Source: Octopus vulgaris (Eukaryota). Taken from it: a DNA stretch of 64,000 bases. Below, in pieces: positions 922 through 9,189 of the stretch; within the stretch, counting starts at the first letter, position 1, and each line of letters opens with the position of its first letter. Under the pieces are notes generated by a model, which worked only from the letters and a program-made list of their open reading frames with translations, made no database searches and had not been told where the DNA came from. The stretch is from NCBI GenBank assembly GCA_951406725.2, contig OX597833.1:32860001-32924000 (forward strand). The letters are read 5' to 3'. The translations under genes were made by a program, and so were the position numbers.

Positions 922-1459
922 ATCTTTATATATATAAAACTGAGAATGTGTGTCTGTCTGTGTGTTTCCCTAAAACTTGAGAACTACACAATCAATTTCA
1001 TTCAAATTTTACACATGCCTTACTTAGGGTCCATGTAGTTTTATGGGGGAAAAAATGTTCAACTTCTTGCCGAGAGCGAGCCCATAGCAATATCATATCT
1101 TCTCCACTATTTCAGTATTACGTGATAAAAGTGAAACAAAAATATTTCTCTATTTTATGTCAGATGCTTTCACTTTAACAATAAAAATAATAATAACAAT
1201 TGAATTATATGTAGTAAGTAATAATTAAAATCAAACTAAAGTATAATATAATCGTAACATAACAAAAGTAGAAATAACAATTGGTATAAAATCGCATCAA
1301 TGATTTGAACTTGAATAAGTGGTTTCACATGAATGGGAATAAATAAAATATAAAATTAGCGTACAGAAATGGAATAGTCCAGATGGATAATAAAAAATTA
1401 AATTAAAGAAAAGACTATTGTCTATAAAGTATACAATGTAGAGAAAAAAGAAGAGCTAA
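922..1459 (+). mobile_element. 5' part of a Helitron-like non-autonomous element
   Basis: Starts A|TC-tttatatatataaaa then a short gtct microsatellite, typical of Helitron/DINE-like 5' ends; interrupted by the retroelement array. Confidence 0.4.
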
Positions 1460-3362
1460 CATTCCAGTCTTCATCGCGTGTGTTAAGTAATTGTTAGTTT
1501 TGCATATAGAAATTGAAATTTGAATCGCGCGAGGCATTTGCCGCTGCGCGTTAGAAACTTTTTGTAGAAAGTGCGCCGACCCTCAAGTCATGGAGACTTA
1601 CGCGGGGGTCGCCGCAATGAAAAGCGATACGCCGCTGACAGTAAGAGAGGTGTTCTTTAAAAAAGAACAGCTAGAGGAATTTGAGAAATTCATTGAAAGG
1701 GAGGGTGACAGAGTGAAGCTGGTCCCCCCTGTTGAAGCAAAGGCGGAAAAAGAGGACAAAACTAGAATCTATAGGACACAGGACACGACCACAAGAAAGC
1801 TATCGAGAATAGCGATAGAAGACATAGAAACATGCCTGGACGGCGTTATAAAAAAGGCTACCTTTGTATGCAGAGGCAGGAAATATGGTACGGTGGAGGT
1901 GAGGTACGCAACAAAAGAAGTTGTGGCCTCACTAGCTACCACCGTACTCAGAGGCGAAAACTTCGTCATGTGGCCTACCTACAAGGGGAAAAGAGGGGTG
2001 CGGGTTAAAATCCCAAACATACCCCCAGATTTAAAAACAGAATGGCTGGTAACAGCCATCCTAGGATCAGCAGAAGAAGGTATAGAAATTGGATCGATAA
2101 AAGAGACCAGCATAGTGAAATGGAAGGGATTCGGAGTAGAGATGTGGCTGACAGTCACAAACAGAGATATAGACCGAATTCCCTTCCAAATAGAAGTAGA
2201 AGATGGTAGACCTCTCTGCGTAATAGTTGAGGGGAGGAAGCCCAATTGTTATCTATGTGGGACAAGAGGTCATATTAAAAAAGAATGTCCGCTTTACGAA
2301 TTTGTGGCGGAGAGTGAAAAAGCAGAGAAAGAAGAAGAACCCGAAGAAGGGAACAATACTCTAAAGGAGAAAGAAAGCAAGGGAAAGGAAACAACGGTAA
2401 AAGAAAATAACAATACACAGAAGGAAAATGAAGGCAAAGAGAAGGAATTAATAGAAAAAGAACAAAAGTCACAGGTAATAGAGAAAGAAAAAGAAAGTAA
2501 AATAAAGGAAAGTGAAAAAACAGGAAAAAAACAAGAGAAGGAACAGAACCAAGAGAAAGGAAAGGCTGCTACACAAAAAGAAAAAGAAAAAACAGGAAAA
2601 GAACATACGACAGACAAAGAACCAAAAAGACAAGAGAAGGAAAAAGAAAAGGAAAGCAAAAAGAGAGAAAGAGAAAAACCGAGAGAGGGAAGTAAAGAAG
2701 AAGTAAGCCCGAAGAGGAAAACCAAAGAAAACATAGGGTCAAATAGAAGATACAAATTTTACGGAACATTGGTACAATATAAACACTGTGGGGAGATGGA
2801 AGAACTTATAAGCGAAACGGAAGGATATTCATGGGTCAGGATCGGCACGGAGTGGAAGGAAACGGGTGCACAGGTCCATGAAGACAACGCCGAGGCGTTT
2901 ATCAAGGCCGCTGGAACGAATGTAACAAGACAAATGAAGTGCCGACTACTAAGGTACCCAAAAGAAATGGAAAACTACAATGACCTAAAAAAGGTAATGG
3001 AGATAATTTAAAATTATAGAAAAAAAAGAGAAAATTTGGAAAGACTTTTGGTTATGTATTTTGAAACCTTAAAGATGTATTGCGAAAGATTTATATGTGA
3101 ATTTGTGAAAACAATTTTTCTGTAATTGATAATGTATTTTGAAATTATATTTTGAAATGTATTGAAATGTATTGCAAAATGCTGAAAAATGAATTTGTTA
3201 CTGTTGAAAACATTATAAAATGACGAAATGTAACCACCTGATTTCGGGGATCGGGTGGAGCATTACACCACATTTATACATATTTCATATTTCATTATTT
3301 TTATTTTTTTCCCCCGATTGTACTGTCCCCTCTATGTTCGCCCCTTGTGGGTAATAATAAAA
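1460..3362 (+). mobile_element. ORF1-only non-LTR retroelement, unit 1 of tandem array
   Basis: Begins with the shared motif attccagtcttcat; ~130-nt 5'UTR, intact ORF1, 3'UTR with two hairpins and AATAAAA; no ORF2. Confidence 0.85.
1590..3011 (+). CDS. L1/Tx1-type ORF1p-like protein (RRM-like region, CCHC knuckle, K/E-rich linker), 473 aa, intact
   Basis: N-terminal YA.V motif, RGRKYGTVEVRYAT and VRVKIPNIPP RRM-like segments, GRKPNCYLCGTRGHIKKECP knuckle; homologous to the ORF upstream of the APE ORF2 at 8613. Confidence 0.85.
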   Translation: METYAGVAAMKSDTPLTVREVFFKKEQLEEFEKFIEREGDRVKLVPPVEAKAEKEDKTRIYRTQDTTTRKLSRIAIEDIETCLDGVIKKATFVCRGRKYGTVEVRYATKEVVASLATTVLRGENFVMWPTYKGKRGVRVKIPNIPPDLKTEWLVTAILGSAEEGIEIGSIKETSIVKWKGFGVEMWLTVTNRDIDRIPFQIEVEDGRPLCVIVEGRKPNCYLCGTRGHIKKECPLYEFVAESEKAEKEEEPEEGNNTLKEKESKGKETTVKENNNTQKENEGKEKELIEKEQKSQVIEKEKESKIKESEKTGKKQEKEQNQEKGKAATQKEKEKTGKEHTTDKEPKRQEKEKEKESKKREREKPREGSKEEVSPKRKTKENIGSNRRYKFYGTLVQYKHCGEMEELISETEGYSWVRIGTEWKETGAQVHEDNAEAFIKAAGTNVTRQMKCRLLRYPKEMENYNDLKKVMEII

Positions 3363-5135
3363 TCTTCCAGTCTTCATTGAGTGTGTGTTGTAGTTGTGAC
3401 CAGACGGTGAATTTTTTTCTGTATAAATTGATTTGATATCGCGCGAGGCGTTTGCCTCCACGTGTGGAAACCTTCCGAAGAAGGTGAATTGACCCTCTAG
3501 TCATGGCGACTTACGCGGGGGTCACCGGAAAAAATAGCGATTCGTCACTAATTGTAAGGGAGGTGTTCTTTGAGAAGGAGAAACTCAAAGAATATGAAAA
3601 GCTTTTCAAAAGGGAGGGTGATAGCGTGAAGCTAATCCCCCCCCCCCCCGCGAAAGCAAAAGAGGATAAAGAAAGCAAGACGGTGACATATAGAACCCAA
3701 GACAAGAATACGAAGAAACTGGCAAGAGTGGAGATAGTCGAAATTGAGAAATGTCTGGGAGACATAATGGGAAAATAACCTACGTGAGTAGAGGCAAGAA
3801 ATTTGGTACGGTGGAGGTGAGATGTGCAACGGAGGAAATTGCGGCCTCACTGGCTACCACCGTACTAAGAGCCGAAAAATTCACAATGTGGCCCTCATAC
3901 AAGGGAAGAAGAGGGGTCCGGGTTAAAATCCCGAATATACCCCCAGAAGTGAAAATAGAATGGCTGGCAACAGCTATTCTAGGAGCAGCAGAAGAGGAAG
4001 TGGAGGTGGAATCAATTAAGGAGTCCAACGCGGTAAACTGGAGAGGATATGGGGTAGAATTGTGGCTGATGGCCACAAAAGAGGATATTGAAAGGTTTCC
4101 CTACAGAATTGAAATTGAAGAGGAAAAAACCCTCAGCGTAATTGTAGAGGGGAGAAAACCAAACTGTTACTTGTGTGGGACAAGGGGGCACATTAAAAAA
4201 GAGTGCCCGTTATATGAATTCGTAGCGGAGTGCGAGCAGGAACTTGAAGAAAAGAAGAATACTGTAAATGAGAAAGAAAGCATAGAAAAGGAAACAAAAC
4301 AACAAGAGAAAGGAAATAATAAGTCAATGAAGGAGAAAGAAATAAAAGAAAAGAAAGAAATAGAACCAAAACAGAGTCAGGAAAAAAAAGGAAAAAGAAA
4401 CAATAGGAAAAAAACAAGAGAGGGATCAGAATCAAACGAAAAGAAAAGACGGCACACAAAAGGAAAGGAACATAAAGCACGAGAGAAAGAGAAAACAGAC
4501 ACAGAGCCAAAAAGACAAGAGAAGGAAAGAGAAAGAAAAGAAGGCAAAAAGAGAGAAAGAGAGAAACAAAGAGAGGAGAACAAGGAAGAAATAAGCCCGA
4601 AAAGGAAGATGAAGGAAAACGCAGGACGGAAACAAGATTACTATTACTACAAGTTAGTAACCTACCATTTCTGCCCTGTAATGAATGACTTGACAAGTAA
4701 AACGGAGGGACATGTATAGGTCAACAGGATGACCGACCGGTGGCAGGAGACTGCTCTAATCCCCGAAGAAAGAGCCGCTGAGTTCCTCAGAGCTGCCGGG
4801 GAAAATGTAATATTTTACACGAAGGTTCGAGTGAGAGAGCGGCTACCTGAGGACTCAGTGATGGACTTCAGAGAAGTGAAAACAATTATAGAATATGTAT
4901 AGAATTGTGAGAGGAAAAAAAAAAGAGAAAAAAGAAAATTTTGTGAAATATATGTGACGAAAATGTAACCTCTTGATTCCGGGGATCGAGTGGACATTTA
5001 CATCTCATTGTAAATATTCTTTCATATGTCATTTTTACTTTTATTTTTTCCTTTTCTTGTCATTCGCTTTCTTATTTTAAGTTCCCCGATTGTATTGTCC
5101 CCTCTATGTTCGCCTCTTGTGGGTAGTAATAAAAT
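3363..5135 (+). mobile_element. ORF1-only non-LTR retroelement, unit 2
   Basis: Same junction motif (ttccagtcttcattgagtgtgt at 3365), same 5'UTR end (ccctctagtcATGG) and same 3'UTR hairpins/AATAAAA. Confidence 0.85.
3503..4902 (+). pseudogene. ORF1p-like paralog with a 1-nt frameshift and a premature stop
   Basis: One A missing in the run at ~3773-3776 joins ORFs 3503-3778 and 3751-4719. TAG at 4717-4719 where paralogs have TGG; homology continues in frame to TAG 4900-4902. Confidence 0.8.
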
Positions 5136-7060
5136 CATTCCAGTCTTCATTGAGTGTGTTGTTTAGTTATTTTGTATGTGAAAAATTTGGAAAAAAAACT
5201 GTTAAAAAATTGTCAAAAATTGAATCGCGCAAGGCGGTTGCCGCTGCGTGTTTGAACCTTTTATAGAAGGTGTGTCGACCCTCTAGTCATGGAGACTTAC
5301 GCGGGGGTCGCCACAACAAAAAGTGATGAGTCTCTTAGAATAAGAGAAGTGTTCTTTAGAAAAGAACAATTGAAGGAATACGAGAAGTTCATCAAAAGGG
5401 AGGGTGACAGCGTGAAGCTGGTCCCGTCTGTTGAAACAATAGAGGAGAGAAATAACAAGACGATAACGTATAGAACGCAAGATAGGAACACGAGAAAACT
5501 GGTGAGAGTGACGATTATAGAAATAGAGAAATGTCTGGGGGACATTATGAAGAAAGCGACTTTTGTAGACAGAGGAAAGAAATATGGTACGGTGGAGGTG
5601 AGATGCGCAACAAAGGAAGTGGCGGCCTCATTAGCTTCCACTGTTCTGAAAGCCGAAAATTTCACTATGTGGCCGACGTATAAAGGAAGACGAGGGGTAC
5701 GGGTAAGAGTCCCAAAGGTGCCCCCAGAAATAAAAACAGAAATGCTGGTAACAGCCATTCTAGGGTCAGCAAAGGAGGAAGTAGAAATAGGGTCAATCAA
5801 GGAGACCAACGTTGTAAATTGGAAGGGATTCGGAGTAGAGTTGTGGCTGATGGCCACAATGGAAGACATCGAAAGGTTTCCCTTCCAAATAGAAATAGAA
5901 GACGAGAAAACAATTAGTGTAATTGTGGAGGGGAGAAAACCGAATTGCTACTTGTGCGGGTCAAGAGGGCACATAAAAATGGAATGTCCGCTGTATGAAT
6001 TCACAGCGGAGCAAAAAGAGACACAAAGTGGAGAGAACAAAAAAGAACACGAAGGAAAGAACAGCGAAAACAAGGAAAAGGAAATAACGGAGAAACAACA
6101 AGAGAAGGGAAGTAACAGCGCACAGAAGGAAAATGAAAACAAAGGGAAGAAGATAGTAGAAAAGGAGCAAAATTCACAGGGTGGAGAAGTAGTGGAGAAG
6201 AAGCCAAGGCAGAAGCAAGAGAAAGAAAAGGAAAGTACATTAAAGGAAAGAGAAAAAACAGGAAAAGAACAAGAGAAGGAACAGAACCAAGAGAAAGGAA
6301 AAGATGGTATGCAAAAAGGAAAAGAAACAACAGGAAAGGAACATAAGGCACAGGGTAGAGAGACGACAGACAAAGAGCCAAAAAGACAAGAGAAGGAAAA
6401 AGAAAGAAGAGAAAGCAAAAAGAGAGAAAGAGAGAAACCGAGAGAGGAGAAAAAAGAGGAAGTAAGTCCTAAGAGAAAAACTAGAGAAAATGCAGGTACG
6501 AATAGAAAATTCAAATACTATGGAACGTTGATCCATCACATGCACTGTGAGGAGATGGAAGATTTAATAAACGTAAGAAATGGATATACGTGGGTCAGGA
6601 TGGGCACCGAATGGAAAGAAACAGGTGCACTCGTCCACGAGAACAACGCTGAGGCGTTCATCGAGGCAGCTGGCAAGAACGTGTCAAAACATATGAAATG
6701 CCGACTTACAAGGTGGCTACGAACGATGGAAATTTACCAAGATTTTGTAGAGATAATGGAGTATATATAAAAGAAAAGGTATTGTGAAAACTTTAATTTG
6801 GAAATGATAAAAAGAACTTTAAATTCTGAAGAAAAAAAATGTTGAACTTTGTAAAATTTTTGAAATATATGTTGAAAATGTGTAAAATGTTTTTATTTGG
6901 AAAATATTGTTGAGGAATAAAAAATGACGAAATGTAACCGCTCGATTTTGGGGATCGAGTGGGCATTACACCACATTGTACAAACTTCATAATTCATTAT
7001 TTTATTTTTCCCGATTGTATTGTCCCCTCTATGTTGCCCCTTGTGGGTAGGAATAAAACA
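5136..7060 (+). mobile_element. ORF1-only non-LTR retroelement, unit 3
   Basis: Junction motif at 5136, intact ORF1, conserved 3'UTR hairpins, AATAAAA at ~7052. Confidence 0.85.
5289..6770 (+). CDS. L1/Tx1-type ORF1p-like protein, 493 aa, intact
   Basis: Colinear with 1590-3011; GRKPNCYLCGSRGHIKMECP knuckle. Confidence 0.85.
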   Translation: METYAGVATTKSDESLRIREVFFRKEQLKEYEKFIKREGDSVKLVPSVETIEERNNKTITYRTQDRNTRKLVRVTIIEIEKCLGDIMKKATFVDRGKKYGTVEVRCATKEVAASLASTVLKAENFTMWPTYKGRRGVRVRVPKVPPEIKTEMLVTAILGSAKEEVEIGSIKETNVVNWKGFGVELWLMATMEDIERFPFQIEIEDEKTISVIVEGRKPNCYLCGSRGHIKMECPLYEFTAEQKETQSGENKKEHEGKNSENKEKEITEKQQEKGSNSAQKENENKGKKIVEKEQNSQGGEVVEKKPRQKQEKEKESTLKEREKTGKEQEKEQNQEKGKDGMQKGKETTGKEHKAQGRETTDKEPKRQEKEKERRESKKREREKPREEKKEEVSPKRKTRENAGTNRKFKYYGTLIHHMHCEEMEDLINVRNGYTWVRMGTEWKETGALVHENNAEAFIEAAGKNVSKHMKCRLTRWLRTMEIYQDFVEIMEYI

Positions 7061-7311
7061 ATTCCAGTCTTCATTGAGTGTGTAGTGAGTCATTATATTT
7101 TCCTCTGTTATATTCTACTGTGTTTCTGATTGACTTTGTCTGTATTGTCTGTTGTTGTACAATTATTGTAATCAGCCTTCGTGCGAGGGCTTCGTGTTGG
7201 TGTTCCCCCCTCCGTGGGGAAAATCTATCGTTATTGATGCATTTGAGGTTTGCAAAACCAAAAACCTTTTTTCGCGGTTGTGCTAAAGGCTTGTTAAGCC
7301 AGTTTTCAGAG

Positions 7312-8604
7312 ATGGACTCCCCCATCTCCTATTCACCCATGTCAAGTGATGCAGGATCACCGGCGGTGTCGCCGAAGAAAAAAGAGACCCCAGCACCAGC
7401 TAGAAAATTTTCTGAAGTCGCTGGAAAGAAAATTAAAAAAATTAACACTGAAAACCTACAGAAATACGCAGACTGTTTGATAAAAGAGGGCACAGAAGTA
7501 ACGGTGTTTACGAATGCCCAAAAGCAAGAAGAGATTGATAAAAAAAGAATAATATACAAGACTTTCAACATCACATGTAAGTCTATACAAAGAATAGAGG
7601 AGAAAAAAATAGAAAACTGCCTAAAGCCGATATGGGATAAGATTACGTACATCAATCGCGGGAAGAAATACGACACAGTGGAGGTGAGATTTGCAACGGA
7701 GGAGGTAGCCAAAAAGCTATCCATGGAACCCATGAAAGCGGAGAATATTGTTCTCCTCCCCCTGTATAGAGGCAAAAGAACCTCAAGGATAACAATGAAC
7801 AATATTCCGCCAGAAGCGGACGCCACATGTCTGGTGGCAGCAGTTATGGTAGGCCTGGAGGAAAAATAAACATCCTCCAGGCCACAGTAGAGGAGGAAGA
7901 AAATTGGAAAGGGCAGCGTATAACGATAGCCATCCAGGCAGAGATACAAACCCTGGAAGAGATTCCGGAGACACTGAAAATCAGTGAGGACGAAAGAGTC
8001 GTGGAGGGCAGAAAGCTGAGGTACTTCGGCTGCGGTAAGAAAGGGCATGTAAGGGCAGAATGCCAACCCAAACCGCAGGAAGCAGCTCAGCCAGGTGGAA
8101 GAACAGAAGAGGTGTCACCAGAAGCAGCGCCGGGCGGCCCAGAAGGGACGGCTGAAGGTGTGGAGGTGACAGAGGCAGCAGAACCGGCGGCGAAGGTAGT
8201 GGAGGAAACAAAGAGCGAGGAAACGAAAAATGAGGAGGGGTGGTCAAAATCACTAGGAAAAAAAGAAAAACTGAAACCACCCCTCCGAAAGTAAACCAAA
8301 AGAAAAAAGAGAGTCTTTGAACTCATTTATGGCCATTAAGGCCTCAAATAATAGACTCGGTAATGTGTTGGCAGCTATGGCCAAGGTAGAAAAAATTGGA
8401 AGAAAAAATGATTACATATTGTACAGAATAGGCCGGAAGGATTACGGACGGATAAAGTCCGAATTTTTTCATGACGTGAGCCCTCTCAGAATGGATATAT
8501 CATCACCATATATATTCGAGGGCCTGCGTCAGACTCCCCCGCGAGGCCCAGAAAAAGAGGAAAAAAATGAAGAAGAGAAAGGAAAAGTCGAACCACTGAT
8601 ATAA
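7312..8604 (+). pseudogene. ORF1 of the two-ORF element, frameshifted
   Basis: NRGKKYDTVEVRFATEEVA, ITMNNIPPE, knuckle YFGCGKKGHVRAEC (first Cys changed to Tyr); frameshifts near 7866 (one A missing) and ~8290. Confidence 0.75.
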
Positions 8605-8612
8605 GGTAAGTC

Positions 8613-9158
8613 ATGGATTACATTTATGTTGGTTGTTTAAATGTGCGCGGCCTGGGATCAAGCTGGAAGCAAGGTCGCTTCCTTAATGATATCAGGTCGC
8701 GTAATTTGGATGTTATTGTTGCTACAGAAACGCGGTTAGAGGGGCCAAGAGGTCTACTCCCGCTGTTTGACGGCTACGAGAGTTTTTTCTCTCCGGCCAG
8801 TCCTACAGGCGGGAGTGGGGTGTTGGTCCTATTAAAAAGAAACCGGGTTTTTGAGAAAAAGTTAATTTTTTCAGACCCAGAAGGTAGGCTGGTCGTCATG
8901 GATTTGACGTTCAGTAACGGTAAAGTTATCAGACTGGTTGCAACTTACGCACCCAACCAAAAAAGGCAAAGTGATTATTTTCGAGAACTGGAAAACTTTC
9001 TTGGTACTTCGCATTCATTAGTTGTGCTAGGAGACTTTAACACAATTTGCAAAGCGGATGTAGATTGTGTTGGCTTGCGTCCAGATAGAAAAGGTAACAT
9101 TGGCTTCCTGGAACTGCTAAGCCACTTTGAGCTAGCAGATCCTTATAGGTTGGAATAA
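8613..9158 (+). CDS. AP-like endonuclease domain of LINE ORF2 (N-terminal fragment)
   Basis: LNVRGL, DVIVATET, GGSGVLVL, GRLV, TYAPN, VLGDFN motifs; ends before the C-terminal D/SDH catalytic motifs; no RT. Confidence 0.9.
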   Translation: MDYIYVGCLNVRGLGSSWKQGRFLNDIRSRNLDVIVATETRLEGPRGLLPLFDGYESFFSPASPTGGSGVLVLLKRNRVFEKKLIFSDPEGRLVVMDLTFSNGKVIRLVATYAPNQKRQSDYFRELENFLGTSHSLVVLGDFNTICKADVDCVGLRPDRKGNIGFLELLSHFELADPYRLE

Positions 9159-9161
9159 TTG

Positions 9162-9189
9162 GAATAATTGGCACATATTATATTTACAG

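Follow-up and report, generated by a model that had tools for sequence, protein, structure and literature searches.

Conservation of a 5′ splice-site sequence at the ORF1 stop of L1/Tx1-type LINEs in Octopus vulgaris

In the L1/Tx1-type LINEs of the Octopus vulgaris genome, the end of ORF1 is marked by a 5′ splice-site sequence that is conserved across the clade, as judged by comparison of genomic copies. One such sequence lies in the window, by which we mean the whole stretch of 64,000 nucleotides that was analysed (contig OX597833.1, positions 32,860,001 to 32,924,000 of the forward strand). Our preferred reading, which we offer tentatively, is that the motif may well bind U1 snRNP mostly without being spliced, that it works with a predicted duplex joining the start and the stop of ORF2, and that it is probably not what creates ORF1-only elements. 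The features of the window are as follows.

1453–1469, + strand: site in a host repeat at which the array is inserted; the same site flanks other arrays.
1461–3362, + strand: ORF1-only unit 1, with an ORF at 1590–3011 (473 aa, zinc knuckle).
3363–5134, + strand: ORF1-only unit 2, with a broken ORF at about 3503–4902.
5137–7058, + strand: ORF1-only unit 3, with an ORF at 5289–6770 (493 aa) and at least 40 genomic matches at 91–100%.
7013–7058 (also 3316–3362 and 5088–5134), + strand: 3′-terminal tail, common to the ORF1-only units and the two-ORF family.
7061–9156, + strand: two-ORF L1/Tx1-type LINE copy, 5′ end intact and 3′ end truncated, 94.9% identical to copy L033 over 7022–9156.
7085–7090, + strand: second donor-like motif, GTGAGT, close to the 5′ end of the element.
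7312–8604, + strand: ORF1 of the two-ORF element, interrupted by frameshifts and by a stop at 7867–7869.
8602–8604, + strand: TAA, the ORF1 stop codon.
8603–8611, + strand: U1-type 5′ splice-site motif AAG/GTAAGT, cut point 8605/8606, recognised by sequence and cross-family conservation and putative in function.
8613–9158, + strand: truncated 5′ part of ORF2, with an APE-type endonuclease (Pfam Exo_endo_phos, E 4.5e-11); the remaining ORF2 is absent from the window.
8617–8631, + strand: left arm of the predicted ORF2 start/stop duplex, whose partner around the ORF2 stop is absent from the truncated window copy.

As read from its sequence, the two-ORF copy in the window is dead: ORF1 contains the stop and frameshifts listed above, and homology to the family ends at 9156. 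At the break itself (9150–9170) a short sequence is duplicated in direct orientation, with a TG microsatellite after it, and the 3′ part of the host repeat is absent from the window together with the rest of ORF2. The genome was searched over 2.8 Gb in about 30 large contigs. This gave 736 candidate copies close to the window element, of which 40 were scored, at 90–100% identity, and 131 exact ORF1/ORF2 junctions of the family. Full-length copies have an ORF1 of 431–438 aa and an ORF2 of about 1131 aa, in which Exo_endo_phos, RVT_1 and zf-RVT all score above the Pfam cut-off, indicating an APE endonuclease, an RT and a C-terminal zinc region; the nearest solved protein is human L1 ORF2p (E 1.5e-65). 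By this domain set the element is an L1/Tx1-group non-LTR retrotransposon. CCHC residues are visible in the family ORF1, with no Pfam hit at E 0.01 for the ORF1 of L051 or L044, and zf-CCHC is detected in the ORF1-only units of the window. One distant protein relative (26%) carries the name TX1-like in its source; the relative found outside the source genome is one short, distant metagenome locus, and the protein relatives came without DNA context. L1-Tx1 families are described as recently active in octopus (PMC13282606). Some copies contain runs of A-to-G differences (L058 4417–7317 and the X10 contig). A GTRAGT is present in 22 of the 23 family 5′UTRs examined, sitting about 190–235 nt before the ORF1 ATG in L031–L061.

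The family also shows a Tx1-like target-sequence preference, in the form of a shared insertion site and head-to-tail arrays. The arrays (1453–7060 in the window, and downstream of the element in L031, L052 and L061) occupy one fixed site in the host repeat, which we take to be Helitron-like from its short 3′ hairpin and CTAG end. Each unit starts with a copy of the right half of this site, so that insertions stack head to tail, and family copies adjoin other LINEs in the same orientation at the common site. Very deep contigs join the shared 3′ tail (L052 7605–7625) to different upstream sequence, which suggests an abundant SINE-like element with the same tail. The loop of the 3′UTR hairpin is G-rich, and 9 of 23 loci have C-rich sequence complementary to it ahead of the tail, a possible pseudoknot; the two parts lie at about 7450 and 7587 in L052 and at 6938–6963 and 7008–7015 in the window, and similar pairs occur in both ORF1-only lineages. 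The Tx1 clade, as described for Xenopus Tx1 (inserted in Tx1D) and crocodilian Tx1-Mar (PMC4494074), resembles the present elements in having two ORFs, an APE-RT organisation, a fixed insertion site inside another repeat and tandem insertions. A donor between the ORFs and a duplex across ORF2 are not among the features described there, and both are present here, the duplex as a prediction. Our assignment to the Tx1 type is a putative one, made by domains and target preference.

A first-pass annotation of this DNA had pointed to a perfect splice donor between the ORF1 stop and the ORF2 start, and the letters bear this out: TAA (8602–8604), G (8605), GTAAGT (8606–8611), C (8612) and ATG (from 8613). 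The TAA closes the reading frame that holds the C-terminal region of ORF1. Among the four family copies with a full-length ORF1, two stop at the same TAA and two at a TGA five bases earlier. The donor matches the U1-complementary consensus at all 7 scored positions, this being the consensus that we assume for 5′ splice sites. The junction motif is thus confirmed as a real 5′ splice-site sequence, with binding by U1 and use in splicing putative. Within the window the bare motif occurs at chance level, both as AGGTAAGT (2 observed against 2.29 expected) and as MAGGTRAGT (3 against 1.80), and a further AAG/GTAAGT is found within ORF2 of one full-length copy.

The first-pass annotation had proposed conservation in other copies as a check, and the comparison went beyond what could be seen from the window. 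Within the family, AG/GTAAGT is intact in 36 of 40 copies. We do not accept this as proof of function, the flanking columns being equally constant. For comparison across families, a degenerate pattern for the start of the endonuclease was used, blind to the donor and excluding the window family itself. It gave 275 matches, and the 71 loci scored are 70 of these (the first 30, and 40 picked among the first 100 for variety in the matched bases) together with one family copy. GTRAGT is found in the 81 nt upstream of the endonuclease motif in 36 of the 71 loci and in 9 of 18 lineages, loci inside one lineage being non-independent in the first of these counts. The same loci give 105 of 3360 control windows (3.1%), the opposite strand 1 of 71, and shuffled sequences a mean of 2.9 and a maximum of 8. 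A score of 6–7 out of 7 consensus positions is reached in 30 of the 71 loci, as against 81 of the 3360 control windows. Where the motif varies it obeys the donor consensus (GTGAGT, GTAGGT, GTACGT, GTAAGC), and AG precedes the GT in 14 of the 36 loci with GTRAGT. The other 35 loci are without it; many look decayed, and some lineages may truly be without the motif.

The position of the motif is informative. The longest upstream open frame ends between −7 and +5 of the donor in many loci, frames in decayed copies being uncertain, and the gap from the donor to the ORF2 ATG varies from 1 to 68 nt (31 loci). In some loci the ORF1 stop is a TAA or TGA inside the donor motif, the consensus itself containing stop codons. 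The families that have the motif are as little as 41–60% identical in DNA to the window family in the endonuclease, and common descent without selection is therefore an unlikely source of the sharing. The excess of GTRAGT at this distance, together with its tracking of the end of ORF1 and the variable gap to the ATG, indicates selection on the motif and a link between it and the end of ORF1.

A second conserved feature is predicted for the same elements. The longest perfect inverted repeat in L052 3950–7700 is 15 nt, with arms at 4012–4026 and 7396–7410, 3369 nt apart; one arm is just after the ORF2 ATG and the other lies across the ORF2 stop. The left arm of the window copy gives a predicted duplex of about −26 kcal/mol with the ORF2 ends of its closest relatives. 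In 23 near-full-length loci from 8 lineages (the stops of two frameshifted copies being set by eye) the mean predicted energy is −28.5 kcal/mol for cognate ends, as against −17.1 with the ends of other lineages, and the largest lineage alone gives −28.9 against −19.2 kcal/mol when swapped. The cognate duplex is the best of all windows in its own element in 14 of the 23 loci, and in 17 of the 23 no end from another lineage beats it. It fails in two decayed loci (L198 and L207) and is weak in L193. The start and stop of ORF2 are thus predicted to form a co-varying duplex, and the donor is located at the base of its stem, with positions +1 to +6 predicted to be 46% paired to the right arm as against 76% for the ORF2 start (18 loci). 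Masking of the donor by a local hairpin was also considered, and was rejected as no better than in shuffled sequences (z −0.3). Pyrimidine tracts after the donor in several families look like acceptors because they pair with purines after the ORF2 stop. In L201, L217, L212, L173 and L208 the ORF2 stop is itself inside a donor-like AG/GTAAG, and this sequence is the pairing partner of the ORF2 start according to the duplex prediction.

Products of splicing at the donor were then sought in the genome. Spliced-type junctions, having the family ORF1 end without the donor after it, number 0 among 42 rows from four patterns (6, 13, 16 and 7): four of the rows are slightly altered copies of the family that run on into ORF2, and the other 38 are unrelated DNA. 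Pattern searches also gave no family copy deleted from the donor to the 3′UTR, and among the patterns tried there is no genomic copy deleted exactly from GT to AG in the manner of human SpIREs. These patterns cover copies whose 12–15 nt anchor is unchanged and whose next exon begins otherwise than with GTA. Comparison of 23 loci gave no 3′UTR acceptor common to families and no acceptor at a shared position in ORF2 (the best ORF2 bin held 8 of the 23), and hence no conserved acceptor paired with the donor of the kind known from copia. An acceptor-like AG of some kind is present in 19 of the 23 3′UTRs, at scattered positions. Of 30 tails from the family, 28 have a CAG before the shared sequence, and this CAG is missing in sister families; a branch point and acceptor before the tail were rejected as unconserved across families. 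An acceptor just before the ORF2 ATG, giving an RNA that skips ORF1, was also rejected: it occurs in 14 of 71 loci against 10% in the control, and its pyrimidine tract pairs with the purines after the ORF2 stop. The stretch was present in 19 of 24 sequencing runs, and contigs from seven distinct runs were also inspected; these runs are not recorded as RNA and may be DNA, and the contigs drop rare forms. Contigs from six of the runs bridge the donor unspliced, 0 of 15 joints in one set of contigs start at the donor or read GT..AG, the other set lists no joint, and among the loose ends listed none is at the donor; material of this kind speaks neither for nor against splicing.

ORF1-only elements are of at least two origins in the genome, an estimate supported by an ORF1 tree (FastTree, 123 ORF1 cores of 158 hits, the shorter ones dropped, and printed without support values). 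The three ORF1-only units of the window are 72–75% identical to each other and 35–37.5% identical to the ORF1 of the two-ORF element; in the tree they form one clade with no close two-ORF relative. They are therefore not recurrent births from the two-ORF element within the window, as had been suggested, and are too old for a test of breakpoints. A second ORF1-only lineage (L044 and L233–L262) gives 373 pattern matches in the genome and comprises six sub-lineages, 44–75% identical in the ORF1 end. It has GTAAGT in 30 of 30 loci and CAG/GTAAGT in 28 of 30, lying 133–145 nt upstream of the poly(A) signal in the loci with an identified one, with bases +3 to +6 of the donor in a predicted local hairpin (z −3.7 and −4.8). 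This family has at least 14 tandem copies at a spacing of about 1.75 kb (G000:C2:138768965–138791832). At L051 8674–10000 an ORF1-only copy has its own ORF1 repeated immediately after it in inverted orientation. Like HAL1, both the window units and the second lineage consist of ORF1 and a 3′ tail, lack ORF2 and have been amplified as families. No close autonomous parent was found for either among the 123 tree rows, and the retained donor of the second lineage fits internal deletion, which is how the ORF1-only LINEs HAL1, HeT-A and Ag-Sponge are described (PMC5786205, PMC5753468). Those elements share with the present ones the structure, independent amplification and several origins (PMC5753468, PMC5786205); the present lineages differ in being Tx1-like and target-specific, in standing in mixed head-to-tail arrays and, in one case, in keeping a donor.

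The reading that we tentatively prefer would fit these observations together as follows. While ORF2 is being transcribed the right arm has not yet been made, so the donor would be exposed, and U1 bound to it would protect the long A-rich transcript from early 3′-end formation. Once the end of ORF2 has been transcribed, the duplex would close and partly cover the donor. The closed duplex would hide the ORF2 AUG, favouring ORF1 over ORF2. It would also place the ORF1 stop in the vicinity of the 3′ end, and so weaken the decay of a transcript that has 3.6 kb behind its first stop. ORF1-only lineages would stem from deletions within the element that take out the looped-out ORF2 and can spare the donor. 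There are precedents for the separate steps: in copia the U1 site serves in splicing and also prevents premature termination (PMC5580714), a donor motif that stays unspliced influences 3′-end formation and export (PMC4380460), and the distance from stop to poly(A) governs RNA decay (PMC2689704). Covering of the donor by the duplex matters in this scheme because an exposed donor hinders 3′-end formation and export (PMC4380460).

Several points weigh against it. ORF2 has few poly(A)-like signals to be protected from (no AATAAA and 1–2 ATTAAA in five intact ORF2s), and half of the loci scored across families are without GTRAGT. Stop codons form part of the consensus, and some loci use one of them, TAA or TGA, to end ORF1; in the second ORF1-only lineage the local hairpin could be what preserves positions +3 to +6. 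The duplex energies are predictions, with the failures noted. The acceptor-like AGs of the 3′UTRs could be served by the duplex, which might help such a splice. Finally, an unspliced donor near a poly(A) signal harms export in human cells (PMC4380460), an effect that masking must overcome.

The strongest of the alternatives, although we regard it as unlikely, is that certain tissues do splice the donor to a weak 3′UTR acceptor, with the duplex bridging a 3.4-kb intron, and that the resulting ORF1 mRNA is rarely or never retrotransposed, having lost the 3′UTR hairpin. In its favour are the strength of the donor and its link with the ORF1 stop, together with a predicted duplex that draws donor and 3′UTR together, and copia provides a precedent (PMC5580714). 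The 3′UTRs are U-rich and poor in AG (85 observed against 134 expected), and the CAG before the shared tail could act as acceptor. However, other dinucleotides are as depleted as AG (GC 0.62, CG 0.71), the acceptor differs in position among families and is absent in some, and the branch-like CTGAC overlaps the predicted partner of the 3′UTR hairpin loop in the 9 of 23 loci noted above. The genome contained no spliced-type copy in the patterns tried.

It is considerably less probable that the donor splices to outside acceptors, in the next array unit or in host DNA, on read-through RNA, so as to give an ORF1 mRNA without the tail of the element. The head-to-tail arrays would provide the setting, and the proposal would account for a conserved donor without an internal acceptor, for its retention in an ORF1-only lineage and for the missing spliced copies. 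Against it, a genome pattern search for chimeric spliced copies of the main sub-lineage of the second ORF1-only family gave none, the 5′ ends of neighbouring units have no constant acceptor, and ORF1 output would hang on the chance of the insertion site.

We give similarly little credence to the proposal that the motif is a signal for translation or structure (stacked stops, stop-start coupling or the base of a stem) and has no more than a resemblance to a donor. The motif does contain TAA, TAG or TGA, overlaps a TAATG stop-start in many copies and is partly paired, and SART1 couples translation of its ORF2 through a stop-start and a downstream structure (PMC5972666). But neither the frame nor the distance to the ORF2 ATG is fixed, stop-free variants exist (GTACGT, GTATGT), the invariant G before the stop and the upstream AG are unneeded for termination, the motif persists where ORF2 is gone, and local folding pairs it no more than in shuffles (0.53 against 0.52).

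Still less probable is the full interpretation of the first-pass annotation, that splicing from this donor removes ORF2, that the spliced RNA is retrotransposed and that it repeatedly founds ORF1-only lineages. Its background agrees with the literature, both for spliced gag-only RNA of copia-type elements (PMC5580714) and for retrotransposition of spliced L1 RNA in human (PMC5860796), and two of its parts stand, namely the conserved donor and at least two origins of ORF1-only lineages, which have the 3′ tail in common. The ORF1-only lineage of the window has no strong donor at its stop, as expected of a spliced product. The part that finds no support is the origin by splicing. In the patterns tried, no spliced-type copy or deletion copy stands against the 131 intact junctions, families share no 3′UTR acceptor, and the window units are a single old clade. 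The ORF1-only lineage that can be examined retains the intron-side GTAAGT throughout, and a splice at this donor would have taken that sequence away. There is one narrow loophole, in that the motif would be restored if the acceptor were an AG with another GTAAGT immediately after it; among 29 loci, 7 have a GTRAGT close to the ORF2 stop. Human spliced L1 copies are in any case described as dead ends (PMC5860796), and ORF1-only LINEs as internal deletions (PMC5786205). A chance match, which the frequency of the motif inside the window would allow, is hardly credible at the junction and is excluded for the clade as a whole, since 36 of 71 loci have the motif where shuffles reach 8 at most, in families at such low identity.

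It is worth setting the preferred reading, that of a U1 site acting with the duplex, beside what is known of other elements. The type of element, ORF1-only derivatives, spliced L1 copies (PMC5860796) and structure-dependent translation of ORF2 (PMC5972666) are all known already; a literature search, which most subscription papers lay outside, found nothing on a donor between the ORFs or on an ORF2 start/stop duplex. The closest likeness is to the subgenomic gag RNA of Ty1/copia elements (EVD and relatives), which also have a conserved U1-type donor at the border of structural and enzyme genes; those are LTR elements with a short intron, a defined acceptor and a spliced RNA that has been shown (PMC5580714), whereas the element described here is a LINE known from genomic sequence, without a conserved acceptor and with a predicted long-range duplex. 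Human L1, as described for SpIREs, is a LINE with a conserved donor that mostly escapes splicing (PMC5860796), and the present family likewise has a donor-like motif near its 5′ end and presumably a similar escape; the L1 donor is in the 5′UTR and spliced copies exist, while here the donor is at the ORF1 stop and the searches found no spliced copy. In SART1, RNA structure downstream of the ORF1 stop controls translation of ORF2 (PMC5972666), as is predicted here, where many copies have a TAATG overlap; the difference is that the partner strand here belongs to the ORF2 stop, at a distance of 3.4 kb, and that the spacing to the ATG varies.

A broader proposal, possible but on balance doubtful, is that the clade treats ORF2 as a looped-out module, in which the U1 site and the co-evolving 3.4-kb duplex would form a switch of RNA fate timed by transcription, governing full length, export, the ratio of ORF1 to ORF2 and possibly a regulated excision of ORF2; the same loop would predispose to loss of ORF2 and so found ORF1-only parasites. 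The conserved U1-type site and the co-varying duplex are two small and mutable cis-elements. They make it directly testable, outside the cases of human L1 and SART1, how a two-ORF LINE produces plenty of ORF1 but scant ORF2 from a single unspliced transcript and how this transcript avoids premature termination and decay, and the arrangement would offer a route to ORF1-only elements by deletion and not by splicing.
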